This document shows, one piece after another, positions 11,453-45,670 of a stretch of 64,000 nt of DNA. The notes under the pieces are model-generated. The model saw only the letters and a list, made by a program, of their open reading frames with translations, was not told the DNA's origin and ran no database searches. A program made the translations under genes and the position numbers. The stretch's first letter is position 1. Each line of letters starts with the position of its first letter. Source of the stretch: Candidatus Uhrbacteria bacterium (GTDB lineage: Bacteria > Patescibacteriota > Patescibacteriia > UBA9934); the NCBI GenBank assembly GCA_003518105.1, contig DOZH01000008.1, forward strand, positions 122,128 to 186,127, written 5' to 3'.

Positions 11453-12934
11453 CTACAATCCCTTCAACACCCGATAAATCTCCACCATCGCCCAAGTGTC
11501 GAGCGCGCAGTAGTCGAGCAAATCGCGTTTAATCTTCTCCTTATCACTGGCCGACGTCGACGCTAAGATGAGCTTCTCCCAACGCTCACTCGCCTGGTCG
11601 CCCTTGCTGATGTTCATCACACTGTAATTGAGCTCGGGAACGAGTACTGGCAAAACTTTTTTAATACTTGCACTCCCCTTAAAAGCCGGGTCGACGTAAT
11701 AGCCATCAGAAAAAATCGTCATCAAGTCGAACATCTTGTCATTAATTTCTTTCAAGAACGAGGCGTGCTCAGGATGCAGTTCAGCTAGCTTATCGTTACG
11801 CTGCTTCTCATAACTACTATACCAACTGATTACCGTCCCGTTAGGATCGAGGTCGAGCTTCATCCTTTCAATAAGTGGCAAGGTCAAATCACCCTCGGGC
11901 TCGGTGATGAGAAACTCACGATGCTCAATCTCCCCATCTGCTCCCATGATGTGGAGCGAGTATTGGAAAGGAATTTGCTCATACGCTCCAAAGCCGTCGA
12001 ACATGGGAATGGCACTCGAGTAGCCCTCGTAATCAAAGAACTGCAAAGGGAACACCAAGCCGCCGAGCGCCTCTTTAATGGCCCCATAGTCGATGATGGC
12101 CTTCCCGAGCACATAAGACTCATACTGCAACTTTTGCGCCGCATTCAAGTCTTCTGGATTGTGAATGTCCGTCAACGCCAACTCCCCCCGGTCCACCCAA
12201 TCAATCAACTTCTTCTTGCTCATGCCAATCCGGTTGAAATTGTGCACTGAATACTCGGGCACTTCAGGATTGGAATACGCAAAAGTGGAGCAGTGATTAC
12301 TCCTCCCCTCGTACACGCAAGCGCAACCCTTTTCCTCCGGCAACGTCAAACACTCCTTCATCTGCATCATCTCCCCCTTTACCTGCTCTTCCGCCGCCGT
12401 CACTTCACCCGTCAAATCAGATTCGATGAATAACTCACAATTCACCACCTTGCCATTTTTACGATATTCACGATTCAAATGAATGACGCCGGTCTTAACT
12501 ACTTTCACCCCACACGCCTCAATGACAATTTTCTGAAAAGCCAAGTCGTTGACGTGGTGATGCGGCACTTTACGCTTCACCTCATTCGTCGCTTTCACCT
12601 CCCATAACTCCCAACCGCCGAGCTCTACATTAAAACACAAAATATCCGCCCGTAAGTAAAATACGTCCTCCTGGAACGTCGCCTGAAAAATAGTCTTCTT
12701 CTCCTCCATGACCTTCTTAGTATCAATCACCGCTTGGCCATGATGTGATTCGACGAGCACGCCTTCTGGATAAAGGAGTCTACAAGCCGCCTCTGCCAAG
12801 TTACCATCCTCGATAATCTTCTTCTCAAAGTCGCTAAACTCCACATCTACAAATAACTCGGGCTTATGCTTACGCAGCCACAGGTTCTTGCGACAAAATG
12901 TATATTCCAGGTAATCGGTTTTGGTGATGAGCAT
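11453..12934 (-). CDS. PD-(D/E)XK nuclease-superfamily protein (DUF2779-like, 493 aa)
   Basis: A D..ELWEVK motif (ADILCFNVELGGWELWEVKATN) typical of RecB-like PD-(D/E)XK nucleases. Length and N-terminus resemble the DUF2779 family. This is a by-eye call. Confidence 0.45.
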   Translation of the reverse strand: MLITKTDYLEYTFCRKNLWLRKHKPELFVDVEFSDFEKKIIEDGNLAEAACRLLYPEGVLVESHHGQAVIDTKKVMEEKKTIFQATFQEDVFYLRADILCFNVELGGWELWEVKATNEVKRKVPHHHVNDLAFQKIVIEACGVKVVKTGVIHLNREYRKNGKVVNCELFIESDLTGEVTAAEEQVKGEMMQMKECLTLPEEKGCACVYEGRSNHCSTFAYSNPEVPEYSVHNFNRIGMSKKKLIDWVDRGELALTDIHNPEDLNAAQKLQYESYVLGKAIIDYGAIKEALGGLVFPLQFFDYEGYSSAIPMFDGFGAYEQIPFQYSLHIMGADGEIEHREFLITEPEGDLTLPLIERMKLDLDPNGTVISWYSSYEKQRNDKLAELHPEHASFLKEINDKMFDLMTIFSDGYYVDPAFKGSASIKKVLPVLVPELNYSVMNISKGDQASERWEKLILASTSASDKEKIKRDLLDYCALDTWAMVEIYRVLKGL

Positions 12935-12936
12935 AG

Positions 12937-13317
12937 CTATAGAGTTTTAAGGTATTCAACAATTCTTGCGCGATCCTCATTAGCTTTATCTCCCTTAAAG
13001 TATATTTCTATATATAAAAAGGTTAGAGAAGTTTCGTGATAGGCGTAAATAACTCGTATCGCATGATTTCGCAGGCTTCGACATGATAATCGTGATTTAA
13101 TAATTGTGACTTCATTCGCCTTCTGTAGTATCGAGAAATTATTGCCAGTTCCTAATGGATACTGCTCCAACAAGATTTGGAGTCTGCCTAGATCTTCAAC
13201 CAAGCTTGGGTATTTCTTATTTAGTCTTTTAAACTCTCGAGAAAACTCTGGCAGTTCTCTAAAGTTGGTCATATTCCCCAACCGAAGTTTCCACCGGTCG
13301 ATAAAAGACGAACTCAT
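12937..13317 (-). CDS. RelE/ParE-superfamily-like toxin candidate
   Basis: The C-terminal pattern RVIYAYHE..LTFLYIEIYFKGD resembles RelE/HigB toxins. An alternative ATG at 13272 (MTNFRELPEF) would overlap the upstream gene by only 14 nt. Confidence 0.45.
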   Translation of the reverse strand: MSSSFIDRWKLRLGNMTNFRELPEFSREFKRLNKKYPSLVEDLGRLQILLEQYPLGTGNNFSILQKANEVTIIKSRLSCRSLRNHAIRVIYAYHETSLTFLYIEIYFKGDKANEDRARIVEYLKTL

Positions 13318-14143
13318 AATCTAACACCTGCCTATCCTTAGCAATAAACCACGGCGTATCCTTATGCGATAAAGCCGAAATCTGCGCTGCTGTCATGTCT
13401 GACAATCTATTGAGCTCCCAATCAATATGAGCTATCTCCATGCCAGATAATTCCGTCAAGCTAATAGCTTCATTCGGGTTAACTAAATACTTAGTTTGGT
13501 CGTATTTATAAAACTTACTCTTAATAGTTTCGAGCTTACCCGATTCCTCCAACTCCTGAATTATCTTAGCAAAGATAACTGGCGTCGGCCCATGCGTATT
13601 TTTAATATAACGAGCACCAATCAGCTGCTCGTCATACTTTTCGTAATAATCGAAGTCAATAAAATACAAAATTTTGTAAAGAGTAGTTTGGCCGACATTC
13701 GGTTTACCCCCAATTTTCAACAAAATATACAACAAAACTTGTTTGAACTTCTCGACTCTCTCCTGCGGCACCGAAATTCTATCCTCAGCAACAACTACAG
13801 GCTTAGTTTCATTCTTATTCGACTTGGTTTGCATTACCTCATGGCAGACAACCTTACCAGCTCTAATATCCTCAAACGAAATATCAAAAATCTGACTCAA
13901 TACTTCCGCCTCCCCGAAAGTGAGCTCTCTTTTTCCCTGTTCAAAGGCAATATAACTCGAGCGCGAAATCTCGAGTCTCTCCGCCACCTCCAATTGTGAC
14001 CAGCCTCGCTCTAACCGCAGCTTTTTGATAAGTGGACAATATAGTTTAGACATAACTAAAGTGTAGCTTTTTAATGTCGTAATGTCAAACAGTTCAATGT
14101 GTGGATAATTGACACTATCATCAAATCTCACTCCTTTAAGCAA
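13259..14143 (-). CDS. HTH-XRE plus DUF4065/Panacea (SocA-like) domain protein, putative antitoxin
   Basis: N-terminal XRE helix-turn-helix (LRLERGWSQLEVAERLEISRSSYIAFEQG), then a central region (GKPNVGQTTLYKILYFIDFDYYEKYDEQLIGARYIKNTHGPTP) matching the Panacea/DUF4065 signature. Confidence 0.55.
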   Translation of the reverse strand: MLKGVRFDDSVNYPHIELFDITTLKSYTLVMSKLYCPLIKKLRLERGWSQLEVAERLEISRSSYIAFEQGKRELTFGEAEVLSQIFDISFEDIRAGKVVCHEVMQTKSNKNETKPVVVAEDRISVPQERVEKFKQVLLYILLKIGGKPNVGQTTLYKILYFIDFDYYEKYDEQLIGARYIKNTHGPTPVIFAKIIQELEESGKLETIKSKFYKYDQTKYLVNPNEAISLTELSGMEIAHIDWELNRLSDMTAAQISALSHKDTPWFIAKDRQVLDYEFVFYRPVETSVGEYDQL

Positions 14144-14145
14144 TC

Positions 14146-14604
14146 CTACAACTCCACATATTCCTCTGTACTTGTGTCCTCCTGATTATACGCCAAGTCG
14201 TCACTATCAGCGTCGACGTTGGGCGAGGCGGCCTGGTTCACCTGGCCAGTGCTGACTGCCGTCTGTAACGCCTTTGTAGCCCACAGCCGAAAATGCGTAG
14301 CCACAGCCGGCTTGGTGCGATAGCCCACGGAGATAATCGCATCAAGATTGTAGAACTGCGTATTGTACTTTTTCCCATCCTTTGCAGTTATCCGGTATTT
14401 CCGGATAACTGTATTCTGGCTAAGCTCAGCAGTTTTGAATATATTCTGCAAATGCTCATTCACCGTCCGCACATCCACCCCGAACAAACCCGCCATCATC
14501 TTCTGACTCAACCACACACTCCCCAGCTCCACGCGTACCTGAATGCGGCCTGCGCCATGAGGAGAGGTGTAGAGGATCTTTGGTGTTGTTGATAACTTTG
14601 ACAA
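14146..14604 (-). CDS. RhuM-family protein, N-terminal-domain-only fragment (152 aa), apparent TTG start; possibly a gene remnant
   Basis: It aligns by eye to the N-terminal 120 residues of the full-length RhuM paralog at 23804-24820 (VWL.Q.QMA.LF, YNLD.IISVGYR, FR.WAT). It then diverges and stops, with only 2 nt before the next gene. Confidence 0.5.
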   Translation of the reverse strand: MSKLSTTPKILYTSPHGAGRIQVRVELGSVWLSQKMMAGLFGVDVRTVNEHLQNIFKTAELSQNTVIRKYRITAKDGKKYNTQFYNLDAIISVGYRTKPAVATHFRLWATKALQTAVSTGQVNQAASPNVDADSDDLAYNQEDTSTEEYVEL

Positions 14605-14705
14605 AAAGCAAAATTTCTGGAATAATTTAGTTGGAAGTGCCTCATATCCGAACTGTAGCGTTTATCGCTGCGTTCCCGAAAGGGATAGGATATGAGGCTT
14701 TTGTT

Positions 14706-15338
14706 TTATAACGAAGGCCAGGTTTGTACAAAAATTTCTCTGTGAGCTATTAGCCGACGGAACTCGTCTGATCTCGACTGCCCGCTCTGAACAGAACGAC
14801 AAGTAATACTGGCCGTATAATCTGCTAATTGCAATAAGTTATTACTTTGCGACCTTTGCATCTTAACTTTTCTAATAACTGATTCTCCAGTATTTCCTTT
14901 AACTTTTTGTCGCAGATAACGAGCTAACTGTTGCTGAAAATCATCTCCACTACTTTCATCGATCACCACAATAGCCTCAGAAATTCTTCCCTTGGCATTT
15001 TCAAATACTAAACCACAGACGTACTTATAGAATGAGCTCTTGTTCTTGAATCCTTCTCCGTATAATTTGTCCTTATTGATAACAATTCCGTAATAGAAGA
15101 ATCCATAAGGCCCTACCGCCTCTAAAAATGCCTTGCGTACCCTCGCTGAATTACGCTTAAAGTGAAATTCCTGACCAGCTCTCCACCCGAGTTCACGTTT
15201 CAATAACTCTATCCTCTGATCACAAGCTGTAGCCTCGTCGCTATCCCAAAATGCCACCAAAGAAATACCAAAATATTTGCTCGACCCAGCGGCCAGCTTC
15301 AGACCAGTATCTCCAGATTCATCAATAAAAACCAACAT
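14706..15338 (-). CDS. DUF3800 domain protein (210 aa)
   Basis: N-terminal LVFIDESGD and C-terminal LLQLADY are the hallmark ends of DUF3800. Confidence 0.55.
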   Translation of the reverse strand: MLVFIDESGDTGLKLAAGSSKYFGISLVAFWDSDEATACDQRIELLKRELGWRAGQEFHFKRNSARVRKAFLEAVGPYGFFYYGIVINKDKLYGEGFKNKSSFYKYVCGLVFENAKGRISEAIVVIDESSGDDFQQQLARYLRQKVKGNTGESVIRKVKMQRSQSNNLLQLADYTASITCRSVQSGQSRSDEFRRLIAHREIFVQTWPSL

Positions 15339-15445
15339 GAGAGCTTATCAATAACTTTTCTATTATATCAAGACAGGGTGACGTTCGACTATAATTCCAA
15401 ACAACTCCTCCCATCTGCCTTTGACTCAACCACGAAACTTAACAG

Positions 15446-16135
15446 TTATCTCAACTCAACCGGTGCCAAACCATTCAAAGCCTTATGAGGGAAATAGTTC
15501 CAAGCATTCGTTACTAGCTCTATAGCGTCACCCAAGTCAATCTTCCGACCACCATCATCAAATATAGCTAGAATATCAGTCATGTCGTCTGTCTCTTCCT
15601 CATTATAAATCATGTCTTTAATCTCCTGTAGTGTATGGCCACCTTCAACCAATTCAAGCATATCAAGTAGGTCATGCTCAATCAAAACACGCTGCTTAAT
15701 AATTTGCTTTTGTGATAATTTACGACTTGAACTCTTTACCTGCAACGGCGACTTAACTACCGGTGGTATATCAAGTTTCGCCATGACAAATTCATGCAAT
15801 CCAATCAACATATCTTCACACTCCTTGGCTCGCTTAGCAGCTCTAGCTAGCACAACCTCACCGGTATATTCTTCAAGAAAAGCACAAGTCACAAAACCTT
15901 CCTTTTCTCCGCAATCCTCTGCTTGATCTAGTAATTGCTGCACCTCTTCGTCATCCTTGAATAATACTCGATGCTTCTTAATTAGATTAAATGTTAAAGG
16001 ATTGAGGTCAATTTCCACAGTTATAAAAACTCTGCTAACAGCGTCTCCCCATATTCGTGTTTCGGTAATCAACCTTACCTGAGAATATGGCTTATCGCCC
16101 CACATTTCATCTTTTTGCTGTTGTGTTAGTGTCAT
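15446..16135 (-). CDS. hypothetical protein (229 aa), acidic, no recognised domain
   Basis: ORF track entry. It sits on the same strand within the AT-rich island. Confidence 0.45.
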   Translation of the reverse strand: MTLTQQQKDEMWGDKPYSQVRLITETRIWGDAVSRVFITVEIDLNPLTFNLIKKHRVLFKDDEEVQQLLDQAEDCGEKEGFVTCAFLEEYTGEVVLARAAKRAKECEDMLIGLHEFVMAKLDIPPVVKSPLQVKSSSRKLSQKQIIKQRVLIEHDLLDMLELVEGGHTLQEIKDMIYNEEETDDMTDILAIFDDGGRKIDLGDAIELVTNAWNYFPHKALNGLAPVELR

Positions 16136-16220
16136 ATTTAACTTAAATAAATTCTTAATCTATTCCTCAGATAAAGCATCAAATCTCTTCAACTCCTCGT
16201 TAAATGCCGCCCTCATCTCC

Positions 16221-16610
16221 TTAATTAATAGTCATCGGTGCGTCTTGATCAACCTTAACATGCCCATTTTCTAAACACCAACTATAACACTGCAAAATCG
16301 CTCTAGCTAATCGTCGAATTCTATCATTACCACACAGCATCTTACGTGGTAAAAAATAACTAATAAAATCAGCAAAAAATACTCCATCCAAAAACTCAGC
16401 ACTAAAATACTCTGTGAATCTCTCCCCTTTAAACTCACTCCTTTCAAATGTCTCCAACTCTTCATCTTCCAAGAAATCGGTGCAGTAACCGTCACAATAA
16501 TCCTCAAACAATCCCACGGCATCTTGATGACAAGCTAAAACCGCCAGACTTGAAACTTTAGCCCGTGCTTCTAGATATTCCAGCAAAACATCATGAATTG
16601 TTTTATCCAT
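16221..16610 (-). CDS. hypothetical protein (129 aa)
   Basis: ORF track entry. It is Cys-containing and acidic, with no recognised domain. Confidence 0.4.
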   Translation of the reverse strand: MDKTIHDVLLEYLEARAKVSSLAVLACHQDAVGLFEDYCDGYCTDFLEDEELETFERSEFKGERFTEYFSAEFLDGVFFADFISYFLPRKMLCGNDRIRRLARAILQCYSWCLENGHVKVDQDAPMTIN

Positions 16611-16617
16611 AAATTAG

Positions 16618-17070
16618 TTAATTAACTTCTTTAGTTTCTCGATTCCATTGCTCAATATCAATTTTCCCAGTGTGCCGCTTCTCCTCCCCCTGTATAATAT
16701 AGTTAATTATTTGAGGTATCTCTCCATTTATTGTTAAATGCAAAACCAAACCTATTCCTCCCGGCAGTAATGGATTAGCATGTTTATAGATTAAACGACC
16801 GGAATGCCCAACTATAAAATCGCCAGATATAAGACTAACTGAACCTAAGTCTAAATTCAATAGAGGGGTGTGAAGAGCAGTTCTTCCTTCGTTAACTAGA
16901 AAAAAAGTTAGAGTAACTTGATTTATTGTCCTGGTATCGGTTGCTTTTAATTTAAGTGATGGTTTAGGTAATTGATAATATGAGAATGCCAGCTGACCGA
17001 TAAAAACCGCTACGCCGACCAACAGTGGAGCCAATAAAAATTCTGCAATCCACTCCATAGCACCAAACAT
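16618..17070 (-). CDS. hypothetical membrane-anchored protein (150 aa)
   Basis: One N-terminal transmembrane helix (LLAPLLVGVAVFIGQLAF). It is separated from the upstream gene by 7 nt and from the downstream gene by 7 nt. Confidence 0.4.
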   Translation of the reverse strand: MFGAMEWIAEFLLAPLLVGVAVFIGQLAFSYYQLPKPSLKLKATDTRTINQVTLTFFLVNEGRTALHTPLLNLDLGSVSLISGDFIVGHSGRLIYKHANPLLPGGIGLVLHLTINGEIPQIINYIIQGEEKRHTGKIDIEQWNRETKEVN

Positions 17071-17076
17071 AAAATC

Positions 17077-18942
17077 TTAAACCAACCCCATCATCTCCCC
17101 AAACGCCTGGGACAGCTTCCACTTCTTCGTGGTATCGACAGCGCGGTGTAAGCCAATAAAACGGGTATCCTTGAATTTAGTTAGCTCCTCTACCGTATCC
17201 TCATGCAAATCAGCATCCAAGCAGACAATTGCCGTCCTATCGCCATCAGTCACCCTCCACACCACGTTACGAGTGAACTCCGGCAACTGCTCCTTCTGCA
17301 TGGTCAGCATAAAGCCCTGCTTCACCAAAGTCTCATACAACAAATCCGTCTCTTTACCCTCCGGTGTAAACATCAACTGCTGCTTAGCTCGCGCCAAATG
17401 TTCTTCAAACGCCTGTACGTTCTCTTCGTCCGTCTTCTCAGGATCCGACTCAAAATTATTCTCTGGGAAGACGCTAGTCGTCAACTTGAATACCTTAAAC
17501 CCAATATCAACCTCTGGCTTCTCAGCCTTAATCCTCTCCCCGGCCCTTTTAGCCCGTTCAATCGTAATACTGGAAATCTTTTTATACCCCGCTTTATACG
17601 CCTCACTATCCTCAGCGATCGCCTCAGGGATCTGCACCAAAATAAACTGCCTATTCCCACCATCTTCTTTATTCAATTCCATCACCGCCTGTGCTGTCGT
17701 ACCCGAACCTCCGAAGAAATCTACAACAAGATCTGATACATCAACGTTAGCGAGAGTTAATAATCTTGTAATTAACCTTACTGGTTTCGGGCCATCAAAA
17801 TTAACGCTATCATTAAATAGTTGCTTCACCTCTTTCGCTCCCTCCTGGCTATGGCCGACATCTTTATAAAATAATATTGAGGTTGGCGTCATTCCTTCTC
17901 TAACCTCCGACAAAAATCTTTTTATGGAAGGTACACTATTTCCGTCCTTGCCGAACCAAATTCGATTGTCTTCGAGTCTCTCAAAAAATGCATTTTTTGA
18001 GAGACTCCAGCAGCGCGCTGCTGGAGGCTCTACAACTCTTCCCGAGGGAGTAGTTATAGGATAGTCATTGTTAGCGCTATAAGTTTTTACCGACATGTCA
18101 CTAGCCTTCCATGCGCCACGAGGATCATTATCTAGATTCTGATAACGATCATTGGCTTCTTGAGAACGCTCTAATTTTCCTACCGTAAAGTCGGGAATAC
18201 TTTTTGCGTACATCAATACATAATCGTGGCTGTTAGAAATGTACTTGGCATCATTTTTCGGAGCATAAGCCCTCTCCCAAATCAATTGACTAACAAAATT
18301 TTCCATTCCAAACACCTCATCCATCAACTTCCTCAAATTATGCACTTCATTATCATCAATGCTGACAAAAATCACCCCGTCGTTTTTGAGTATCATCTGC
18401 GCCAAGAGTAAACGTGGCATCATCATGTTGAGCCAGTTGGTGTGATAGCGTCCGGCGCTTTCCGAGTTAGTGTCCACCTTTACGCCATCGCGGAACACGC
18501 CATTCTTCTCCCAATAAGCCTGCTTGCCTTCGGAGTAGTCGTCGGAGTAAACAAAATCATGGCCAGTGTTATAAGGAGGATCGATATAAATACACTTCAC
18601 CTTATTGTAATAGGCTTTGGATAGCAATTTAAGCACTTCCAAGTTCTCCCCCTCGATGATAACGTTCTTGGTCTCGTCGAAGTTCACACTACGCTCAAAG
18701 TCTGGCGCTAGACGGGCCTTACTACTCGTAAAGGCGTTCTTCTTAGCCTGCATCTTCCCTGGCCATTTGAACTCAAACTTTTCGCCTAACGACAAATCGT
18801 AGTTATGCGCCAAGGCATGGATCTCATCAATGCTGATTAGTCCCTCATCCGTAAACAAATCTGGATACAGCTTTTTAATTACTGCCAATCTTTCTTCACG
18901 CCAATCAGGTGAGGTAATATTTTTAGTGATTTCGTTATTCAT
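17077..18942 (-). CDS. mod: Type III restriction-modification methyltransferase (Mod), N6-adenine, beta class
   Basis: Motif IV DPPY (IYIDPPYNTG) precedes a C-terminal motif I FFGGSGTTAQA. The size is about 620 aa, and it sits next to a Res-like helicase-nuclease. Confidence 0.85.
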   Translation of the reverse strand: MNNEITKNITSPDWREERLAVIKKLYPDLFTDEGLISIDEIHALAHNYDLSLGEKFEFKWPGKMQAKKNAFTSSKARLAPDFERSVNFDETKNVIIEGENLEVLKLLSKAYYNKVKCIYIDPPYNTGHDFVYSDDYSEGKQAYWEKNGVFRDGVKVDTNSESAGRYHTNWLNMMMPRLLLAQMILKNDGVIFVSIDDNEVHNLRKLMDEVFGMENFVSQLIWERAYAPKNDAKYISNSHDYVLMYAKSIPDFTVGKLERSQEANDRYQNLDNDPRGAWKASDMSVKTYSANNDYPITTPSGRVVEPPAARCWSLSKNAFFERLEDNRIWFGKDGNSVPSIKRFLSEVREGMTPTSILFYKDVGHSQEGAKEVKQLFNDSVNFDGPKPVRLITRLLTLANVDVSDLVVDFFGGSGTTAQAVMELNKEDGGNRQFILVQIPEAIAEDSEAYKAGYKKISSITIERAKRAGERIKAEKPEVDIGFKVFKLTTSVFPENNFESDPEKTDEENVQAFEEHLARAKQQLMFTPEGKETDLLYETLVKQGFMLTMQKEQLPEFTRNVVWRVTDGDRTAIVCLDADLHEDTVEELTKFKDTRFIGLHRAVDTTKKWKLSQAFGEMMGLV

Positions 18943-18951
18943 ATAGGCCTA

Positions 18952-21642
18952 TTAATCCGCCAAAATATTACTAGCTTTCATTTCTTCGACTCTCGAGACA
19001 TCAACCAACGGCGGGAAAGTTTCAGTCACGTAGTAATCTTCTAAACCTATCGCCTTAAAGTGAGCAATCGCACAAGCAATCTTTGCTCGCTCATCTTCGT
19101 CAAGACGAGGCTGACCCGCGTCAAAGCCCTTAGTCTCAACCACAAAGCTGTATTTAGTCGAAACTTCGTCATCTAGCGTTTTCTTCTCAATTACCAATGC
19201 CCAGTCTGGATTATAGTCACCTGCTGGCGTTTTAATTTTATACCACTCTGGCAATTTGATAAAACACCGCACTCTATTCTCATTATCTATCTCCTGACCA
19301 AACCTCTCTTCAATTCTGCTATCAAACACCACATGATCATAAACTCCGTGCTGGACCGGCAGAACGTCTTGTCTCGTCTCAAACATTTCTTTGAATTCGG
19401 ACTTATCCCAAGACTCATTCAGCGCCTCATAACTCACACAACGCACCATAGTTTGCTTAACAATCTTCTTAGCCGCAAGAGTCGCTTTCGCCAAAAAAGC
19501 TACTGGATTCTTGGCCACTTTCTTCTTATCTTTCATGCCGGCCAAAATCTGCTGCACTGCACTTTCAGACAAGGTCGACTCATCAGCAAGTTCTGAGACT
19601 AGATTAATCTTGCTAGCTGACATCCCACCAACTTCTATTGCGCTCTCACCAATATATTCACTGGCAATCGAAGTTTCTCCAGCTTTACCTACAGTAAAAT
19701 TAATTCTACCTAACTTAGTCTGTAACATTGGCTTAGGTACAGACATCTTATCCAGTTCACGGATACACTCGCTAATCAAAAGATTTTCATCAAAATGAAC
19801 AGTAAACTTAGTCTTACGCGAAATCACCTCCCATAAACGATCAAAATCACTGCTCTCAAAAACCGCTTCATTACGCTTAACCGTGGTCGCTACCTTGCGA
19901 GCGTCCACAATTTTCAAGTCTTTAGCCACATCTCCATATTCAACTGCCAATTCGGCTTGATATTGTGCCACAAAGCCCTCATAACTTTGATTAGGAATAA
20001 CCGTCAACACGTTGACCGGCAAACCTTCTTCTAGTTTTTCCGGGTCCCTTACTCGATTACCAGTCTGGTCGACACAAATACGCAAACCACGTCCAATCTC
20101 TTGGCGTTTCTGAATGGCACTTTGCGTCTCATTCAAAGTACAAATGTTAAAAATATTTGGGTTGTCCCAACCTACACCCAATGCCGAGTGCGAAAAAATA
20201 AACTCTAAAGGCTCAGCAAAACTAAGCAATCGCTCCTTATCACGCATGATCAAATCGAACACTTCGGCATTCTTACTCATAGCTGACTCACTATCCGTCC
20301 ACTCACCCTTACCAGTCTTGGCGAAATAACCATTGTGAACTGTAGTTGTATTCATTGGGTACACTCCGTATTTCTTTTTATACTCATCACTATAAGCCTC
20401 AACAAATAAACGCCTAATCAAACCATTCTCATCCTGGTAATTAGCGACCCGATCAATAAAGAACAATGATAGAACTTTGATTCCTTGCTCTTGCAATTTT
20501 TCCTTCTTTTTAAAGTGCTGAACTACCGTCAAGCGAATCTGTTCTCTAAACACTGCCTCTTTATCCTCCCCGCGGCTGGCGCCCATCTTGAGTTCTTCAC
20601 CATTGGTAAAACGAACTCGAGCTATTTCGTCATTCATGTCTTTCCAAATTCTCTCCACTACCCAACCATCATAAACCAAATTATTGGTCTTTACCGCCAA
20701 ATCCGTATCCTTACCTACTTTAATATTTTTCAACTTAAACTCTCCTCCCGCTAATCTCACCATTACCTCGAGCGTAGCAGCTGGTTGCTTGCCAGCTACA
20801 AAATCAACACTCTTGATCGCAATATTCGCCGAGCTCTCCGTATTCTGCTCATGTACGGATAATACCTCAACCTGCTTAACCAATTTCTTACTATACGCAT
20901 CAAACGGCGTCAGTTGATAAATCAAATTCTTAAGCACTTTATGCGTTGCCGAATAGCGTAACTTCAATATCGGCTTCAAGCCGTTCGCAATCTGCTCAGT
21001 CGCCTTGTCAGTGTCCATGCCCTTCTGGGGTTCATCGAGAATAATCACAGGCTGCACCTGTCCGATCAAATCGATTAGCCGTTCACCACCGTTGCTGTCT
21101 CGCAACTGATTGATAATCTTGTTCTCTCCCACAAAAGCCTGGGTATTCATGACCATGATCTGCAAATCACCCGACTGGGCATAACCGCGAACCATCGCCG
21201 GCTTCTTACTGTCATAAGCGAAAGCCCGGTAATTTACCCCATACAACGCTTTAAAATGCTCGCTAGCGCTCCGTAAGGTGGATAACACACCTTCCTTAAT
21301 AGCAATAGACGGCACGAGGATAATAAACTTGGACAAACCGTAAACTTTGTTCAGCTCAAAAATGGTTCGCAAATAAACATAAGTCTTACCAGTACCAGTC
21401 TCCATCTCGATTGAAAAATCCATGTCAGTCATGGCCTTAACCTCAATAATCCCGTTATTCTCAGCAATCCTATCCCTATTAGCCCAAATCTCCTCATCAC
21501 TAAGCCCAACCTTGTTGGCACAAACGCCTTCGAACAATCTCTCCTCAGGCCTAATATACGGCGCACCAGCAAATAGCCCCGTCACCGCCGCAATGGCATC
21601 GAGTTGGTACTGGAGGTTGGGTTCAAAGTGGAGTTTCAGCAT
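18952..21642 (-). CDS. res: Type III restriction enzyme Res subunit (SF2 helicase-nuclease, 896 aa)
   Basis: Walker A METGTGKTY and a DEPQ box (VIILDEPQKG), plus a C-terminal nuclease-like region. It lies 9 nt upstream of mod. Confidence 0.8.
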   Translation of the reverse strand: MLKLHFEPNLQYQLDAIAAVTGLFAGAPYIRPEERLFEGVCANKVGLSDEEIWANRDRIAENNGIIEVKAMTDMDFSIEMETGTGKTYVYLRTIFELNKVYGLSKFIILVPSIAIKEGVLSTLRSASEHFKALYGVNYRAFAYDSKKPAMVRGYAQSGDLQIMVMNTQAFVGENKIINQLRDSNGGERLIDLIGQVQPVIILDEPQKGMDTDKATEQIANGLKPILKLRYSATHKVLKNLIYQLTPFDAYSKKLVKQVEVLSVHEQNTESSANIAIKSVDFVAGKQPAATLEVMVRLAGGEFKLKNIKVGKDTDLAVKTNNLVYDGWVVERIWKDMNDEIARVRFTNGEELKMGASRGEDKEAVFREQIRLTVVQHFKKKEKLQEQGIKVLSLFFIDRVANYQDENGLIRRLFVEAYSDEYKKKYGVYPMNTTTVHNGYFAKTGKGEWTDSESAMSKNAEVFDLIMRDKERLLSFAEPLEFIFSHSALGVGWDNPNIFNICTLNETQSAIQKRQEIGRGLRICVDQTGNRVRDPEKLEEGLPVNVLTVIPNQSYEGFVAQYQAELAVEYGDVAKDLKIVDARKVATTVKRNEAVFESSDFDRLWEVISRKTKFTVHFDENLLISECIRELDKMSVPKPMLQTKLGRINFTVGKAGETSIASEYIGESAIEVGGMSASKINLVSELADESTLSESAVQQILAGMKDKKKVAKNPVAFLAKATLAAKKIVKQTMVRCVSYEALNESWDKSEFKEMFETRQDVLPVQHGVYDHVVFDSRIEERFGQEIDNENRVRCFIKLPEWYKIKTPAGDYNPDWALVIEKKTLDDEVSTKYSFVVETKGFDAGQPRLDEDERAKIACAIAHFKAIGLEDYYVTETFPPLVDVSRVEEMKASNILAD

Positions 21643-21705
21643 AGGTAGGAGGTTACTGCGAGGTATTCTAGCACATATTCAAGCAACTAGGCTGTGTAAG
21701 ATTAA

Positions 21706-22455
21706 TTAGATGAATATTTTTTTATTAAACAAATGATTCAGTATTTTTACCCCCTGGTCATATGGAATATGCGGGATCATTATTCTCCCCTCCTTAGTTA
21801 TAACAGTCTCACCAAATACTTCATCTGTGTTTTTGTTAGTAATATTATATATAAATACCCACCCACCAATCACTAATACATAGCCAATATTTTGATACTT
21901 CACCCCCGCTGACGGGACTCTGATTTCTCTCGGCTCACCAACAATCTCGCTCGGTAGATTTTGGTTATGGTAGCGGGAGAGCATGCATGGAAAGCTACCC
22001 AATTCACCGGCATTACCAGAATTGAGCATCTCTCTAATCGCCTCTTCATATTTGCCAAGCTTCACTTTAGCGAAAAAAGGTAAATTTGAAATACTTGCTC
22101 TCCATAATAATGAGAGACAAAAGAGCTTAAATTTTGTATAATCTAACCCGTTGATCACCGTATATTCTAACCCATCCTCCTTCCGAAAATAATTAACTTG
22201 AACCGGAGGAATTACTTCGTCGCAAAAGACAGTTTTCGCATAAGTTTCATATTGGTTAATGACTTCATTATCGCATTTTGCACAAAGTATATCGGCCTCA
22301 TGTAAACCACTTTGAACGAATTTTGACCTATAGTTCTGTAATGATAAATTAACAAGTCGATGCTTGTCATCGTACATTTGTGTATATAAAAAATCTGACC
22401 AAATGTGAGACTTTTTTAAGAGCACGGTCTCTTTTAAACATAATCGACATTGCAT
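21706..22455 (-). CDS. Cys-rich putative zinc-binding protein, possibly HNH-like (249 aa)
   Basis: CRLC..KSHIW then CAKCDNE gives a C-x2-C ... H ... C-x2-C-D-N spacing reminiscent of HNH/zinc-ribbon nucleases. This is a weak call. Confidence 0.35.
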   Translation of the reverse strand: MQCRLCLKETVLLKKSHIWSDFLYTQMYDDKHRLVNLSLQNYRSKFVQSGLHEADILCAKCDNEVINQYETYAKTVFCDEVIPPVQVNYFRKEDGLEYTVINGLDYTKFKLFCLSLLWRASISNLPFFAKVKLGKYEEAIREMLNSGNAGELGSFPCMLSRYHNQNLPSEIVGEPREIRVPSAGVKYQNIGYVLVIGGWVFIYNITNKNTDEVFGETVITKEGRIMIPHIPYDQGVKILNHLFNKKIFI

Positions 22456-22470
22456 AATGCGACGCCTTAT

Positions 22471-23415
22471 TTAAAGACTTTGCTCGACCTCTTTAACATG
22501 CCTGGCAAAAACTCGTTTAAACGATGAAATATTCTTCAATAACCAATTGAAATAATCGATACGTCTATCCAAATCCTCCATAGAAAACTCATGGGAGATG
22601 ATAACCCTGGCAGCCTTAGCATGCTCGAGTCTTTGCCAATCTAGCTCCATGCCGATTTCCTTTTCTATCGCTGTTTTACGCTCTAACAAACCATCAAATA
22701 GTGGCTTATTATTAGAAATAAAAAGCTCGCAACTCATGATCTTTTTCTGCGAGCGAATAACCATCGTCACATGGGCCTTACTACTACCAATAGATACGTC
22801 CATATACGCCTGCGCGCGAGGTGACTGGAAGCGTATATCCTTATAATGCTCAACACCATACTCATGCAAAGCCGTCCAAAACTCAAGTTGACGAAGATTA
22901 CCTTCGCTTGGTTCACCTCTCCCAGAAGCATTCTTAATTGTCTTTGCCCATTCATTTGGACGACAAATAACATCAAATTTTGGTGCTGGCTTAGAGTCAC
23001 CAATTTGCCAAAGCTCGAGCTTTACAGCAAAAAAGTTCACTTCATCAGTAGTATGTTCATTAAGCCAGTCAATTGCTTGACGATGTTCCTCTCTAACCTC
23101 CTTAAAGATCCAAATTATATATCCTGCCCCATGTCCTGAGGCATACGTAATAAGCTTGCCAAGATGATCGTGGTCGGTGGTTTCAAGTTGATTTTCAATA
23201 ATAGCCTTGATGCCTGTTCCCTCTTCTTCTACAAGAATATCAACGTTAAAGTCACCTACGTTAGCCTCTGTTTGAATCAATAAAAGATCTAGTCCTAGCT
23301 CTTCTCCTAAAGCAGCTAGGTTGTCGGTCTCGGCTAGCCATCTTGTGAACTCTGGTTCAAATGGCCATACCCTCCGTAAATCAGTTTTAATAATATTTCC
23401 AAGATCAATTGTCAT
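22471..23415 (-). CDS. PD-(D/E)XK nuclease-like protein (DUF4268-like), about 314 aa from the internal ATG
   Basis: VGDFNVDILVEEEGTGIKAIIENQLETTDHDHLGKL contains a D..E.Q/K-type nuclease core. The start at 23415 avoids overlap with the upstream MazG gene; the ORF-track frame extends to 23487. Confidence 0.45.
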   Translation of the reverse strand: MTIDLGNIIKTDLRRVWPFEPEFTRWLAETDNLAALGEELGLDLLLIQTEANVGDFNVDILVEEEGTGIKAIIENQLETTDHDHLGKLITYASGHGAGYIIWIFKEVREEHRQAIDWLNEHTTDEVNFFAVKLELWQIGDSKPAPKFDVICRPNEWAKTIKNASGRGEPSEGNLRQLEFWTALHEYGVEHYKDIRFQSPRAQAYMDVSIGSSKAHVTMVIRSQKKIMSCELFISNNKPLFDGLLERKTAIEKEIGMELDWQRLEHAKAARVIISHEFSMEDLDRRIDYFNWLLKNISSFKRVFARHVKEVEQSL

Positions 23416-23425
23416 ATATAGAAAT

Positions 23426-23776
23426 TTATAATTCAGTATATTTAACCGCACTCCCCTTACTCTTCTCCACCGGATACTTCTCCCCATTCTTCACCAGCTT
23501 ACGCTCAAACGCCTGGCCGATGTCGATGCCGAGGTCGTGGGACATTAAGAGGACCCAGTACAGAACGTCGGCGAGTTCGTCGGCTACGTCTGACTGGTGG
23601 GTAATGAGATACTCGGTTAGAGCCTCGCCATTACGCCATTGGAAGTGTTCCAGTACCTCTGTCGCCTCCAGCTGGAGCGAGATGGCGCAATCCTTGGGAT
23701 TATGGAACTGCGCCCAGTTGCGAGCGTCACGGAACTTCACTACTTGGTCAGTCAGGTTGGCGATGGAGTCGGACAT
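23426..23776 (-). CDS. MazG-like nucleotide pyrophosphohydrolase (small all-alpha NTP-PPase, 116 aa)
   Basis: FRDARNWAQFHNPKD..EATEVLEHFQW..ELADVLYWVLLM..KNGEKYP matches the MazG/HisE-type NTP pyrophosphatase signature. Confidence 0.75.
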   Translation of the reverse strand: MSDSIANLTDQVVKFRDARNWAQFHNPKDCAISLQLEATEVLEHFQWRNGEALTEYLITHQSDVADELADVLYWVLLMSHDLGIDIGQAFERKLVKNGEKYPVEKSKGSAVKYTEL

Positions 23777-23803
23777 ATTATAGTTTACTAACTTTTTAGT
23801 ACT

Positions 23804-24820
23804 TTAGCCCACCTTATGCTCAACTATTCTCTGAACCTCCTTAATACTCTCTAAATACGCCTCCTCTACGGGCGAAAGTGTCTTAGCTTGATACTTACGG
23901 TATTCACTCGTCGCTTTGTCTACAGCTCGTTCGTGACTAATGGAGCCAGCGTCTTTCAGTGCACCTTTACCAAAATTCTCAGCAAATTTGTCTAGCTCGG
24001 CAATCCAGTCTACCATCCGCATTTTTTCATGTTCCTGTGCCTTAATTTCTGCTAAATCAAAGAAGGCGGAGACTAAACGGTTTAAACGAAAAAGTTCATC
24101 TTTAGTTAAATAATTTTTCGCAATTCTCACCTCCGCCAGCACCGGCATGGCCCCAGCAAAAGTCGTTAGGCCCATAAAATCCTTGGCAGCATCTGCACGT
24201 TCGTGAATAGTTTCGGCAGCCGTGTGTTGATTAGTTGCGTAGTGCAATTTATTTTGTACAACTTTAAAAAACGCTACCGACTCAGAACTCTGCGGGTTAT
24301 AATCTATGCTCGTAGCGTATAAATCGAGCACCTGACGGTAGAGGGCCTTCTCGCTCGAACGAATATCCCGAATACGCTCAAGCAGCTCTTTCCAATATTG
24401 TCCGCCACCATTGCCCTTGAGCCGTTCGTCGTCCATGGTGAAGCCCTTCACAATATACTCTCGCAAACGTGCCGTGGCCCACATGCGGAATTGTGTGCCT
24501 TGAACAGATTTTACGCGGTAGCCAACGGAGATAATAACGTCCAGGTTGTAAAGTTTGACCTCTGATGTCTGGGTTTTCCCCTCAATTGCACCGTGTTTAG
24601 TGGTTCGTCGGGAATTCCGACATACCACTTTTTCATCTAGTTCTTCTTCTTTAAAGATGTTTAAGATATGTTCGGCGACCGTGGATCGTCCTTTGTCAAA
24701 AAGTTCAGCCATCTGGTCTTGAGTAAGCCACACCGTCTCATTTTCAAGTCGTACCTCAAGCCTTGGGGCGCCGTTACCCCCTTCGTAGATAATTATTTCG
24801 TTGTTAGGTTTATTGACCAT
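23804..24820 (-). CDS. RhuM-family protein (full length, 338 aa)
   Basis: TVWLTQDQMAELF...YNLDVIISVGYRVKS..GTQFRMWAT plus the long helical C-terminal region typical of the Virulence_RhuM family. Confidence 0.75.
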   Translation of the reverse strand: MVNKPNNEIIIYEGGNGAPRLEVRLENETVWLTQDQMAELFDKGRSTVAEHILNIFKEEELDEKVVCRNSRRTTKHGAIEGKTQTSEVKLYNLDVIISVGYRVKSVQGTQFRMWATARLREYIVKGFTMDDERLKGNGGGQYWKELLERIRDIRSSEKALYRQVLDLYATSIDYNPQSSESVAFFKVVQNKLHYATNQHTAAETIHERADAAKDFMGLTTFAGAMPVLAEVRIAKNYLTKDELFRLNRLVSAFFDLAEIKAQEHEKMRMVDWIAELDKFAENFGKGALKDAGSISHERAVDKATSEYRKYQAKTLSPVEEAYLESIKEVQRIVEHKVG

Positions 24821-24824
24821 ATCA

Positions 24825-25649
24825 TTATTTTACGAGCTTCTTACCGGTAGACTTCACCTGTCGCTCCACCTTTTTCAAGTCTTCCTCTGCTGGTAAATTC
24901 TCCGGCTGAATGCCACTTTTCAGCAGTACCTCGCGGACGTTCTGATTATTCTTGATATGCTCCTCGGCTATTGGTTGCTCACCATATAACGCTCGTTCTT
25001 TCTTCACATTAAAACTAGTAATCTCGTTCGCCAAATCTTTCGCCTTAATCGTTACCGCTGGCAAAAAGTCGGCCAATGGACGTTTAGCGGGAATACCGAG
25101 CTTAGCCTTCATCTCTTGAGTACTATGACCACCAAATAATACATTATCGCCTTTGCTCTTAATTCGCGCTAAGCCAATATTATCAACCCCACGCTCAAAC
25201 AAAACGCCGGACAACTCTCTATCAGATTCGGTGAGCTTGTTACGAGCCTGTAATCGCTCCAAATCCGCCAAACGCTTGACGATGAGCTCCTGATTCCTCG
25301 TTTGTACCGCAAAGTAAGTCTGAGCAAAAGCAATCTCGTCTTTGCGAGGATCGCCATTCTGAGCAATGAGATAGCAAGCGTAACGGGTAAGCATAATATC
25401 TGCTACTTCCCGAGTTCCGCCATTCGGCATTGGGGATGATTTCGTGACGTCACGAAAATGATCATTCATTGGCTGTTTTGCCGTCTCACAAGCAATCCTC
25501 GCCTTTTTCAAGGCATTTTCGAAGTTCTCCCAACGTCCATAACCAAGCAAAGTCTGTAACTCACGCGCATACCAAAACTCAACCCCGTTCTCTTCGTGCA
25601 CACAATCCTCAAAATTCTTATGTAATGCAGTGATAACTTGGGGCTCCAT
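24825..25649 (-). CDS. dinD: DNA-damage-inducible protein D (DinD) homolog
   Basis: Collinear similarity to E. coli DinD (FWYARELQTLLGY..W.NF, LTRYACYLIAQNGDP, FAQTYFAVQTR, GSTELAANLFR-like segments). Confidence 0.8.
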   Translation of the reverse strand: MEPQVITALHKNFEDCVHEENGVEFWYARELQTLLGYGRWENFENALKKARIACETAKQPMNDHFRDVTKSSPMPNGGTREVADIMLTRYACYLIAQNGDPRKDEIAFAQTYFAVQTRNQELIVKRLADLERLQARNKLTESDRELSGVLFERGVDNIGLARIKSKGDNVLFGGHSTQEMKAKLGIPAKRPLADFLPAVTIKAKDLANEITSFNVKKERALYGEQPIAEEHIKNNQNVREVLLKSGIQPENLPAEEDLKKVERQVKSTGKKLVK

Positions 25650-25686
25650 ATTTGGTATAGTTAGATGAACCTCAATCTTACCACGT

Positions 25687-27273
25687 CTATCTCTGTCTAC
25701 TTGTTACAGCTGTGACTAACTTCGGCAACCTCACCATCTCCTTCTCCCCATCTTGCGCCAACTTCGCATGAAGTCCCTCCCAGTCAAAAAACGGTAAAAC
25801 GAAAATCATATACCCCAAGCCAATCGGGTGATTCAGGTACGGCGAGAAGACGTGGGTGATGAAGAGCGCGACCACGCCAGCGTAGAGGCCAATAGTCAGC
25901 CAGCGGTGGCCGTGGTTGTGGTAGGTGAAGTAGAAGGCGCGGCTGACGACCACGAGGTACCAGACGAAGGCGATGAGGCCGAGCAAGCCCATCTTGAGCC
26001 AAATGTCCTGATAGCCCCATTCAAAGCGATAGGTGGTGTACTCGCCAGTTGGGTTAGTGGCGCGGATGCGAGGGTCGTCCGTAATGAAGGTGACGTTGTG
26101 ACCAAAGCCGCGGCCGAGCATCGGACTCGCCACAATCTCCTGGTACATCGGGTAAAGCAAGTTCCAGCGGCTACTGACGGCTAACTCGCGGTCGTCGGTC
26201 TTGGTAGTCTTATAGAAAGCTGCCTCCTTAAAGTTGGGATGCGGAGGAATTGGGCTGACAATTACGGCCCAGAACAAGACAGCTCCCAAGGTCATAACTA
26301 GGCCGACCCGACCGGCGTTCAAAATATGCTTGCCGATGGTTTTCGGCGCATCAAGTAGCACAAACAAGGCCACAATGCCAGCTCCAGCTAAGGCACCTAG
26401 GACAAAGCTGCGGGACAAGCTGACGACGAAAGCGGCGGTACAGAGAATTAGGGTCACCTTGGCGGCCAGCGGCATGCGTTCGCTCTTCCACACCGTAAAC
26501 TTAGCGGCGACCAGGGCGAAGATCATGACCATCGGGAAGAAATGCGCTGGTTGGAACACGCGGAAGTACCACGGGCTAGTATTCGACAAGAAGTTACCCA
26601 CAAACCAGCTTGGTCCAGTTAGCAAGGTAACTTCAGCAATGCGGGCGTCACGCACAAATTCGTAGACACTAGTAAGTACGCCCCCTGGAAGATGAGTAAA
26701 GAGAAACAAGATGAAGAGGGTGTTAACGCAAATAAAGATAGTGCTGGCAAAGAAAACCTGGAGCAGTTCTCGTTTTTTATTGCTGTCCCAAACAATCGAC
26801 AACATTGGCAAGAGATAAGCGATGGTGACGTAGCTGTTAGCGTCGTCGAAAACCTGAGCCACATTATTCTGCAGGAAGCCGATGGCGGTACCAAGAACAA
26901 CGGCCACGAGGAGCAGCAACCACGGCGTATCGCGGAGTACCATGAACTTCGGCCACGTCTTCGTCTTAAGCGAAGTCACAAGCCAAGCCAACATGACAGC
27001 AGCGAAGATGACCATTCTGATGGACAAGCTGAAACCGCCGACACTGGCGTCGATGAGGTGACCGTGTCCTCCCACCATAATCTCCGCAAAAGCAATCAAC
27101 AGCCCATTTATCGGATTCTTGTACGCCATGACGGCCGTCACCACAAAGATGAGGCCGAGGACGATCAGCGATGGGATTTGCTGATGTTGGACGGGAATGG
27201 CGACGAGGGTCGTCAAGGTCAACGCTGCTAAGGCTATCCAGGAAGTCTTACCTACAAATTGCTTGCTAAACAT
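25687..27273 (-). CDS. O-antigen ligase/polymerase-like membrane protein (Wzy_C family, 528 aa)
   Basis: At least 10 transmembrane helices, the characteristic LSLSRSFVLGALAG loop motif, and a large periplasmic loop. Confidence 0.65.
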   Translation of the reverse strand: MFSKQFVGKTSWIALAALTLTTLVAIPVQHQQIPSLIVLGLIFVVTAVMAYKNPINGLLIAFAEIMVGGHGHLIDASVGGFSLSIRMVIFAAVMLAWLVTSLKTKTWPKFMVLRDTPWLLLLVAVVLGTAIGFLQNNVAQVFDDANSYVTIAYLLPMLSIVWDSNKKRELLQVFFASTIFICVNTLFILFLFTHLPGGVLTSVYEFVRDARIAEVTLLTGPSWFVGNFLSNTSPWYFRVFQPAHFFPMVMIFALVAAKFTVWKSERMPLAAKVTLILCTAAFVVSLSRSFVLGALAGAGIVALFVLLDAPKTIGKHILNAGRVGLVMTLGAVLFWAVIVSPIPPHPNFKEAAFYKTTKTDDRELAVSSRWNLLYPMYQEIVASPMLGRGFGHNVTFITDDPRIRATNPTGEYTTYRFEWGYQDIWLKMGLLGLIAFVWYLVVVSRAFYFTYHNHGHRWLTIGLYAGVVALFITHVFSPYLNHPIGLGYMIFVLPFFDWEGLHAKLAQDGEKEMVRLPKLVTAVTSRQR

Positions 27274-36153: not shown

Positions 36154-36170
36154 ATTCGATAATTAATATC

Positions 36171-36509: not shown

Positions 36510-36517
36510 AAGTCTTA

Positions 36518-45593: not shown

Positions 45594-45670
45594 TGGTGTA
45601 TCTGAGCGGATTCGAACCGCTGACCTTCTCCTTCGGAGGGAGACACTCTATCCAGCTGAGCTACAGATAC
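45594..45670 (-). tRNA. tRNA-Arg (anticodon CCG), 77 nt including an encoded CCA
   Basis: Manual cloverleaf: acceptor stem GTATCTG/CAGATAC, D arm GCTC-AGCTGGATA-GAGT, anticodon loop CTCCGAA, T arm AGCGG-TTCGAAT-CCGCT, then A and CCA. Confidence 0.9.

Follow-up and report, generated by a model that had tools for sequence, protein, structure and literature searches.

How is immunity organised in a bacterium with a genome of about 1 Mb, and what kind of element is the AT-rich block of some 13 kb that separates two core genes in one such genome? We address this in a stretch of 64,000 nucleotides from contig DOZH01000008.1 (the window), in which the block at positions 12935..25686 (12,752 bp, GC 0.425) fills the gap between a gene for a DUF2779 protein and the gene g528. 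The window population is a Candidatus Uhrbacteria lineage from groundwater, and the names of its proteins at NCBI are likewise those of Uhrbacteria. It belongs to the candidate phyla radiation (CPR, or Patescibacteria), which accounts for a large share of bacterial diversity; to our knowledge, these bacteria mostly lack CRISPR and few of their defences have been characterised. A preliminary description, drawn from the letters alone, had seen in the block one minus-strand accessory island of defence and toxin genes. We find that it is very probably a composite chromosomal defence island at a variable hotspot between the two core genes.

An island of this sort is a well-known kind of feature and not surprising in itself. 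The locus is nevertheless a well-delimited example of how immunity is organised in such a small genome: one allele of the site is empty, two others hold alternative fillings, and genes were added to a conserved backbone. It offers a Panacea-linked toxin candidate of the RelE fold, a DinD and RhuM pair, a DUF4268 protein and four orphan genes as candidates, and it places the pairing of a DUF3800 protein with a small RNA (sRNA), an open question since 2017, in a defence context with a defined, invariant architecture that makes it directly testable. This cassette and the orphans are most worth follow-up.

Species-representative genomes were scanned with the flanking DUF2779 protein, which yielded a graded set of relatives that includes the loci L009, L008 and L030. 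Open reading frames (ORFs) of the island were searched against four protein profile libraries (Pfam, PADLOC, NCBIfam and PHROGs), and RNA genes were sought with Rfam.

A variable site between two core genes

Both flanks are conserved genes. On one side lies DUF2779 (11453..12934; Cas4-like nuclease family, Pfam DUF2779 at 127.5 bits), whose product is 94, 94 and 84% identical in L008, L030 and L009, with a ratio of non-synonymous to synonymous substitution rates (dN/dS) of 0.04-0.07. On the other lies g528 (25687..27273), which has no Pfam domain, is 81-86% identical at the amino acid level in L009 and L030, and is the first gene on the side of a polysaccharide cluster, with GT2, GT4 and flippase genes as its neighbours. 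In L009, g528 abuts DUF2779 directly, the two being 19 bp apart, and the site is empty. Window positions 12935 and about 25772 mark where nucleotide homology to this relative ends. With the stop codon of g528 at 25687, the island coordinates proposed in the preliminary description were right to a few bases.

Two further relatives carry other cargo than the window at the same site. L008 holds 9.66 kb at GC 0.40, with genes for Fic, DinD, RhuM, MazG, GT2, an IS1595 transposase, a PIN-like protein, Panacea and a short RhuM, and L030 holds 6.68 kb at GC 0.415, with Fic, NYN, MazG, a second Fic, a Schlafen-type helicase, a short RhuM and a full RhuM. Most of the window's cargo has no homologue at this site in any relative. 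The IS1595-family transposase of L008 (6118-6906) is the sole mobility gene seen at this hotspot.

These occupancies bear on whether the block could be ordinary, vertically inherited core whose low GC stems from gene-specific constraints. That account draws on DinD, MazG and the short RhuM, which are vertically inherited and under purifying selection, and on a test of synonymous-codon likelihood that gave a marginal difference. Against it stand the empty site in L009, the different fillings in L008 and L030, a GC content at third codon positions (GC3) of 0.37 versus 0.57, and cargo that mostly lacks homologues at the site; we regard it as largely refuted already and very unlikely. The comparison with relatives thus bears out the accessory region and hotspot that had been proposed: the block is not conserved synteny, and its composition, as detailed below, is not uniform with that of its surroundings.

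Variation extends to the adjacent junctions. Between DUF2779 and the ABC gene, L030 holds 7.4 kb (11495-18864) and L014 2.1 kb (1182-3311), and L009 has 1.5 kb (13314-14839) between ABC and fmt. The L030 insert encodes two NAGPA-domain proteins of about 1200 aa. Across 23 more distant Uhrbacteria loci, defence-type genes recur beside DUF2779, and more methyltransferase, RhuM, MADS and PDC matches lie upstream of it than downstream, a suggestive pattern that falls short of a clean statistic. One metagenome-assembled genome (MaH-04nov19-6) has two DUF2779 paralogs on different contigs (L010 and L012), 75% and 71% identical to the window protein.

The source being a metagenome assembly, AT-rich foreign DNA might also have been joined to an Uhrbacteria contig by an assembly or binning error, and two Logan contigs do end inside the island, in the mod gene at 18003. 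However, contigs 99.87-100% identical to the window are present in ENA, JGI and Logan assemblies, and independent assemblies from all three sources (the JGI contig being 394 kb long) span both island junctions identically. Sister species have orthologs of the backbone genes within the island, and the break at 18003 coincides with a 34-bp palindrome, longer than the Logan k-mer, which we take to be 31, so that it is probably an assembly artefact. We consider a chimera barely credible. Look-ups of exact proteins (both flanks and Res) returned the same population alone (at least 99.87% identical), were uninformative for the boundaries and gave no second context. L006, considered as a sequence variant, was rejected: its sequence is identical and only the gene calls differ.

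Composition and layered origin

Measured in 1-kb windows, GC is 0.37-0.46 from 13 to 25 kb and about 0.51 on both sides. Island ORFs have a median GC of 0.406 versus 0.510 in the rest of the window (Mann-Whitney p=4e-6) and a median GC3 of 0.370 versus 0.567 (p=1.5e-4). Of the composition and codon-usage checks that had been proposed, GC and GC3 thus clearly depart from the surroundings, as expected of the AT-rich island described earlier, and the difference in synonymous-codon likelihood is marginal (p=0.054). Two genes are exceptions to the AT-richness, MazG (GC 0.536) and the short RhuM (GC 0.510), and the AT-rich DNA falls into two blocks, 14605-23415 at GC 0.416 and 12937-14143 at GC 0.391.

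Every protein ORF between 12.9 and 25.7 kb lies on the minus strand, as do both flanking genes. The earlier statement that all genes there do so holds for the proteins and fails for one RNA gene on the plus strand, and the minus-strand run is no trait of the island, as it spans 9632 to 31348.

Gene order and selection reveal more than one layer. Three species have in common the backbone order (DinD-RhuM)-MazG ... short RhuM ... DUF2779, in which dN/dS is 0.04-0.10 for MazG, 0.06 for DinD and 0.17-0.32 for the short RhuM, with synonymous divergence (dS) of the same order as in the flanks. DinD, MazG and the short RhuM are thus old residents, present in the common ancestor of the three sister species and kept under purifying selection. 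The two AT-rich blocks are later, lineage-specific acquisitions, since both are bordered by backbone genes and neither has an equivalent in the sister species. Because GC is heterogeneous and three species combine a common backbone with different inserts, several events are indicated rather than one: the accessory island is real, and it is composite and layered instead of a single acquisition. The short RhuM itself, which the preliminary description had taken for a fragment, is short but conserved and maintained: purifying selection acts on it and its GC is host-like.

Genes of this kind raise the question of a prophage. Bro-N/DinD, RhuM and MazG are often prophage-borne, and the island might be a decayed prophage or integrative element that entered once at a specific site and whose integrase and structural genes are gone. 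In keeping with this, g249, DUF4268, DUF3800 and MazG match PHROG families, and g249 has a structural homologue in a Myoviridae contig. In none of the island ORFs, however, did searches of domain libraries turn up an integrase, a recombinase, a terminase, or a capsid or tail domain; the island borders carry no att-like direct repeats beyond chance-level ones; and no tRNA lies beside the island, the nearest in the window being at 45.6 and 60.6 kb. Nor do g229, g150 and g249 have close relatives on viral contigs, or g249 any in GenBank phages, and the heterogeneous GC and the common backbone with different inserts do not suit one entry. As the defining features of an integrative element were sought and are absent, we hold this origin to be improbable. 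Since integrase, att repeat and tRNA are lacking, the cargo of a composite island may instead have turned over as DNA was taken up and recombined by homology with the conserved flanks and backbone.

Independent modules of defence-type genes

The composite island consists of independent modules, in transcription order DinD with RhuM; MazG; DUF4268; g249; res-mod with g150 and g129; g229; DUF3800 with its sRNA; the short RhuM; and PanA with its toxin, each of which may protect against phage or stabilise the island. Pfam and PADLOC bear out the dense defence and toxin content described earlier, with matches to Type III restriction–modification (R-M), PDC-S05 (two genes), PDC-S11, PDC-S13, DUF3800 and PanAT. 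The gene list given with that description agrees with Pfam, PADLOC and NCBIfam, and had missed one gene, that of the DUF3800-IX sRNA.

First in the order is DinD (24825..25649), identified by an NCBIfam equivalog (327.5 bits versus a cutoff of 242); its N-terminal domain is Bro-N, matched by Pfam, it fits the PADLOC candidate family PDC-S13 over its full length (E=1.3e-108), and it is 86% identical to its L008 counterpart at the amino acid level. The full-length RhuM (23804..24820) follows 4 nt downstream, with 339.6 bits to Pfam Virulence_RhuM and a full-length match to PDC-S05 (E=1.8e-145). PDLC04871, a PDC-S05 model of 468 aa, aligns first to DinD (positions 5-129) and then to RhuM (127-438), and since fused forms of the two must therefore exist, DinD and RhuM probably act together, as a candidate anti-phage pair. 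In E. coli B, one PDC-S05 representative with a RhuM domain conferred roughly 1000-fold protection (bioRxiv 10.1101/2024.09.26.614923). The full-length RhuM is only 44-51% identical between species (44-47% between the window and L008 or L030) and its dS is saturated, though its neighbours are conserved, a divergence that suggests allele replacement or rapid diversification.

The MazG-like nucleotide pyrophosphohydrolase (23426..23776; Pfam MazG-like, 67.4 bits) belongs to the old backbone and is 82-83% identical to its counterparts in L008 and L030, at a dN/dS of 0.07-0.10. Next comes a DUF4268 protein of 314 aa (22471..23415; Pfam DUF4268, 86.6 bits), which matches PDC-S11 over its full length (E=2.3e-112), from residue 25 of a longer ORF, and also phrog_27742; DUF4268 is part of the validated defence proteins MdgA and MdgB (PMC12366544). 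The second PDC-S05 gene, the short RhuM (14146..14604), encodes a RhuM N-terminal-domain protein of 152 aa (PDC-S05 short models, E=2e-42), has a GC3 of 0.62 and has orthologs in L008 and L030.

The Type III R-M genes look intact, judging by their motifs. Res (18952..21642; PADLOC REase_III, E=3e-202; Pfam ResIII and RE_endonuc, the latter at 105.7 bits) has GTGKT, DEPQ, SAT and QEIGR and a C-terminal D...ExK, and Mod (17077..18942; PADLOC MTase_III over its full length, E=3.5e-179) has DPPY at residue 121 and FFGGSG around residue 410; 9 nt separate the two genes. As in systems of the EcoP15I type, Mod belongs to the beta class of N6-adenine methyltransferases and has the DPPY and FxGxG motifs, and Res, which adjoins it, combines superfamily 2 helicase motifs with a C-terminal PD-(D/E)xK nuclease. 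The locus differs from that type in its order, res then mod, and in the two tightly coupled orphans, g150 and g129, that follow mod.

A 34-bp perfect palindrome lies within mod at 17974-18007 (GAGTCTCTCAAAAAATG/CATTTTTTGAGAGACTC) and overlaps a near-palindrome of 32 bp, the palindromic region reaching from 17974 to 18031. This region codes for Mod residues 304-323 and contains no insertion relative to the Mod family model. The 8-mer GAGTCTCT occurs in five copies in the window versus 1.24 expected.

In E. coli and Pseudomonas pangenomes, defence islands and hotspots are described that lie between core genes of the chromosome. In groundwater Patescibacteria, hundreds of genomic islands were found in 125 genomes, among them R-M islands, with defence genes over-represented among transferred genes (PMC12455944). 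These data are at odds with the statement in the preliminary description that islands of this sort are rare in reduced genomes, and the window itself shows further insertions. Like known defence islands and those of Patescibacteria (PMC12455944), the locus is a variable AT-rich region between conserved core genes, with defence cargo that differs between genomes, an empty allele and, within the window, an absence of mobility genes. It differs from them in its ultra-small CPR host, in its layering around an old backbone of DinD, MazG and the short RhuM, and in that about one-third of its genes are orphan or CPR-restricted.

Several points weigh against a composite defence island with turnover at a hotspot. 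Besides the marginal codon-likelihood difference, the site in L009 may have been never filled or cleanly deleted, and the identical Res protein was found in no other context, so that there is no direct sign of recent transfer. Turnover by recombination is deduced solely from the missing mobility genes, and the L008 island carries an IS1595 transposase. Apart from the Type III R-M pair, the PADLOC matches are mostly to 'candidate' (PDC) families, and the label 'defence' for g249, g150, g129, g229 and the DUF3800 gene with its RNA is one of guilt by association.

A convergent DUF3800 and small RNA cassette

The DUF3800 gene (14706..15338) encodes 210 aa, with 51.3 bits to Pfam DUF3800, a weak match to PADLOC PDC-M04A (E=1.9e-6) and no match in a sequence search of the PDB. 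DUF3800 proteins are RNase H-like and have been tied to retron type VII and CRISPR loci (PMC5737381, PMC7736814, PMC10910872), papers that give no function for the DUF3800 RNA motifs. The protein keeps the DE and QxxD motifs, as defined in PMC7736814, in the form of IDESGD and QLAD.

Opposite its 3' end, on the plus strand, we found a DUF3800-IX sRNA gene (14598..14708; Rfam RF02968), which covers the full model (1-67) and scores 62.4 bits versus a gathering score of 36.8. A promoter-like site at 14598-14626 (TTGACA-17-AATAAT with TG; 11 of 12 positions) is the best match in the 13-kb region. The structured RNA (14639-14702) folds into a three-way junction with a minimum free energy of -33.5 kcal/mol (z=-5.8), and its outer stem is followed by UUUUGUUUU, a U-tract to about 14708, which reaches the DUF3800 stop codon at 14706-14708, the two genes being convergent.

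This arrangement recurs in relatives of the protein. In all 15 DUF3800 homologues obtained from metagenomes (56-67% identity), the motif lies on the opposite strand, with the 3' end of the RNA within -12 to +14 nt of the DUF3800 stop codon, and their alignment has a near-invariant -35 element (TTGAC), a TATAAT-like -10 element and a conserved GGAA(U/G)UGC leader. Compensatory changes affect 11 of the 21 base pairs, and the proportion of paired cells is 96.9%. A covariation score of 0.515 compares with 0.246 for shuffled alignments, none of 500 of which reaches it, and with at most 0.186 for slid controls. One invariant U.G pair and one that is mostly G.U support the assigned plus strand, as they would be A.C mismatches on the other.

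Neighbours of the DUF3800-sRNA pair are unrelated from locus to locus: one pair lies between hsdM and hsdS, one beside RhuM, and others among housekeeping genes. A conserved third gene was rejected on these grounds, and the pair is therefore a self-contained cassette of two parts. The insertion between hsdM and hsdS, in L102 (922-4441), sits within a Type I R-M system. In L113 (2501-2645) and L114 (2541-2685), only the last 25 or so DUF3800 codons are left and the DUF3800-IX RNA is intact; next after the RNA in L113 comes another, distinct DUF3800 gene (2776-3426).

What the RNA does can be approached by comparison. The structured RNA beside DUF3800 and the terminator-like U-tract agree with the DUF3800 RNA motifs described by Weinberg et al. 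in 2017 (PMC5737381; RF02968). To that description (PMC5737381) our analysis adds that the genes are always convergent, that the RNA has its own sigma-70-type promoter and that the GGAA(U/G)UGC leader lies outside the Rfam model. Likeness to retron type VII (PMC7736814) consists in a DUF3800 protein with DE and QxxD, a structured non-coding nucleic acid and a defence context. The RNA motif here, however, is unlike the retron non-coding RNA (PMC7736814), no reverse transcriptase domain is found in the island, and the PADLOC model DUF3800_VII matches weakly (E=0.0013).

As in other toxin–antitoxin (TA) systems that contain an RNA, a small RNA gene is tightly linked here to the gene of a potentially harmful protein. 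Type I systems with antisense RNAs that overlap at the 3' end include txpA/RatA and bsrG/SR4 of Bacillus subtilis, and ToxIN is an example of type III. The convergent 3' overlap (-12 to +14 nt) resembles the former, from which the cassette differs in that its protein is a soluble RNase H-like DUF3800 of 210 aa and not a small hydrophobic membrane peptide. With ToxIN it has in common a structured RNA of the protein-binding type, here in single copy, on the opposite strand and downstream instead of in tandem repeats upstream on the same strand.

We tentatively favour, at somewhat less than even chances, an RNA that binds the nuclease-like DUF3800 protein, or controls it otherwise, and restrains or directs it. 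Its main alternative is an antisense effect through the unavoidable overlap of the 3' ends of the two transcripts. Pairing of the sRNA in trans with the translation-initiation region of DUF3800 was rejected, as cognate pairs do no better than non-cognate ones (p=0.27). More boldly, the DUF3800 gene and the sRNA may make up an autonomous module of RNA and protein, so far uncharacterised as a kind, in which the sRNA checks or directs an RNase H-like effector and which serves for addiction or as an anti-phage cassette; we hold this to be less likely than not. It would explain why the cassette is found in a defence island, why in another genome it was inserted between hsdM and hsdS, and why decayed copies retain their RNA.

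A Panacea antitoxin with a RelE-fold toxin candidate

At the DUF2779 end of the island, a gene for a helix-turn-helix (HTH) and Panacea protein, PanA (13259..14143; Pfam SocA_Panacea, PF13274, 62.9 bits versus a cutoff of 25.7; N-terminal HTH_3, 48.1 bits), is followed by g126 (12937..13272), which overlaps its stop codon by 14 nt. The true start of PanA is probably the ATG at 14053, giving 264 aa: this codon stands directly after a minus-strand promoter-like site (TTGACA-17-TACACT, 14088-14060), and the Panacea partner genes of homologues encode 227-267 aa. Homologues of g126 start at Met16, from which its product has 111 aa.

The g126 family has 31 members and no Pfam domain. The protein itself has no usable match in Pfam, NCBIfam, PADLOC, PHROGs or a PDB sequence-profile search, and 3 of the 31 members match ParE_toxin weakly (best E=0.024). 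Its AlphaFold model is confident (predicted local distance difference test, pLDDT, 92.5; predicted template modelling score, pTM, 0.85), and the top 37 or so PDB matches found by Foldseek are all toxins of the RelE/ParE superfamily (HigB2, RelE, YoeB, YafQ), with template modelling (TM) scores of 0.5-0.75 and a probability of about 1.0, at E-values of only 1e-3 to 1e-1. In the family alignment K59, R73, Y76, E89, Y91, K93 and R103 are invariant. All four homologous loci examined (59-42% identity), in unrelated neighbourhoods, have an overlapping Panacea gene before the g126 homologue.

The conserved pairing with Panacea and the RelE fold of the model identify the pair as a predicted PanA-PanT system with a toxin candidate of the RelE/ParE fold, in line with the 'RelE-like' label that g126 had been given earlier. 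HTH-PanA forms and ParE-domain PanTs have already been described, together with 41 unannotated PanT clusters (PMC8832971). As in the described systems (PMC8832971), an HTH and Panacea antitoxin lies upstream of a small toxin-like gene and overlaps it; the difference is that the g126 family, being without a Pfam domain, is RelE/HigB-like by predicted fold only.

Orphan genes

Five island proteins, g126, g229, g129, g150 and g249, have no informative match in the four profile libraries. Between DUF4268 and res, g249 (21706..22455) matches phrog_19960, a family of unknown function; it has an HNH-like N-terminus (CxxC...SHI...CxxCDN) and a core DYTKFKLF...LWRASIS, and has nine relatives among 5.8 billion proteins. 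Its model (pLDDT 76) has a single full-length structural counterpart, an uncharacterised protein from Myoviridae (E=1e-12, TM 0.69), and none in the PDB.

Downstream of mod by 7 nt lies g150 (16618..17070), with an N-terminal hydrophobic helix, no match in Pfam, PADLOC, NCBIfam or PHROGs and, among 1.84 billion representatives, a single further relative at 41% identity. The acidic protein g129 (16221..16610) follows g150 by 8 nt, matches no profile library and has no homologue in the related loci. Both genes may be co-transcribed with mod.

The fourth orphan, g229 (15446..16135), belongs to a two-domain family of about 35 relatives, all from CPR lineages, that has no Pfam domain and whose profile finds no match in the PDB. 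Domain A ends in a highly conserved motif, WNYFPHKxLxGLSPxE. Domain B precedes A in the window protein and two relatives (P0035 and P0045), and A precedes B in 18 others. The two homologues examined lie in R-M contexts, one with an N6/N4 methyltransferase, MvaI/BcnI and PIF1, the other with Fic, a C5 methyltransferase and HinP1I. As a partner of DUF3800, g229 was rejected, its homologues not lying beside DUF3800. A secondary possibility is that g229, restricted to CPR and repeatedly beside R-M genes, g249, g150 and g129 include new CPR-specific defence genes.

Other variable patches in the window

About 1.2 kb at 35313-36516, which L009 lacks, represents a second small insertion; it lies between alaS and the infA side of the ribosomal cluster and holds two genes (281 aa and 112 aa) in which no Pfam domain is recognised. 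Low GC (0.41-0.46) also marks 55135-57402 and its neighbours to about 60.4 kb, possibly another accessory surface-polysaccharide region; the 755-aa gene at 55135-57402 encodes an amidotransferase of the asparagine synthetase B type (E=7.5e-63 to PDB 1ct9). An orphan of 195 aa at 44948-45535 (GC 0.378), with no PDB sequence match, adjoins tRNA-Arg(CCG) at 45594-45670 and may be a small tRNA-associated insertion.

Variation within the population is concentrated in core genes. The window and the 99.87%-identical contig L001 differ at 27 positions, all in three tight clusters (2938-2944, 8919-9162 and 11090-11108) that fall in clpB, fmt and ABC, with none in the 10 kb of the island that is covered; clustered in this way, the differences look like short recombination tracts.

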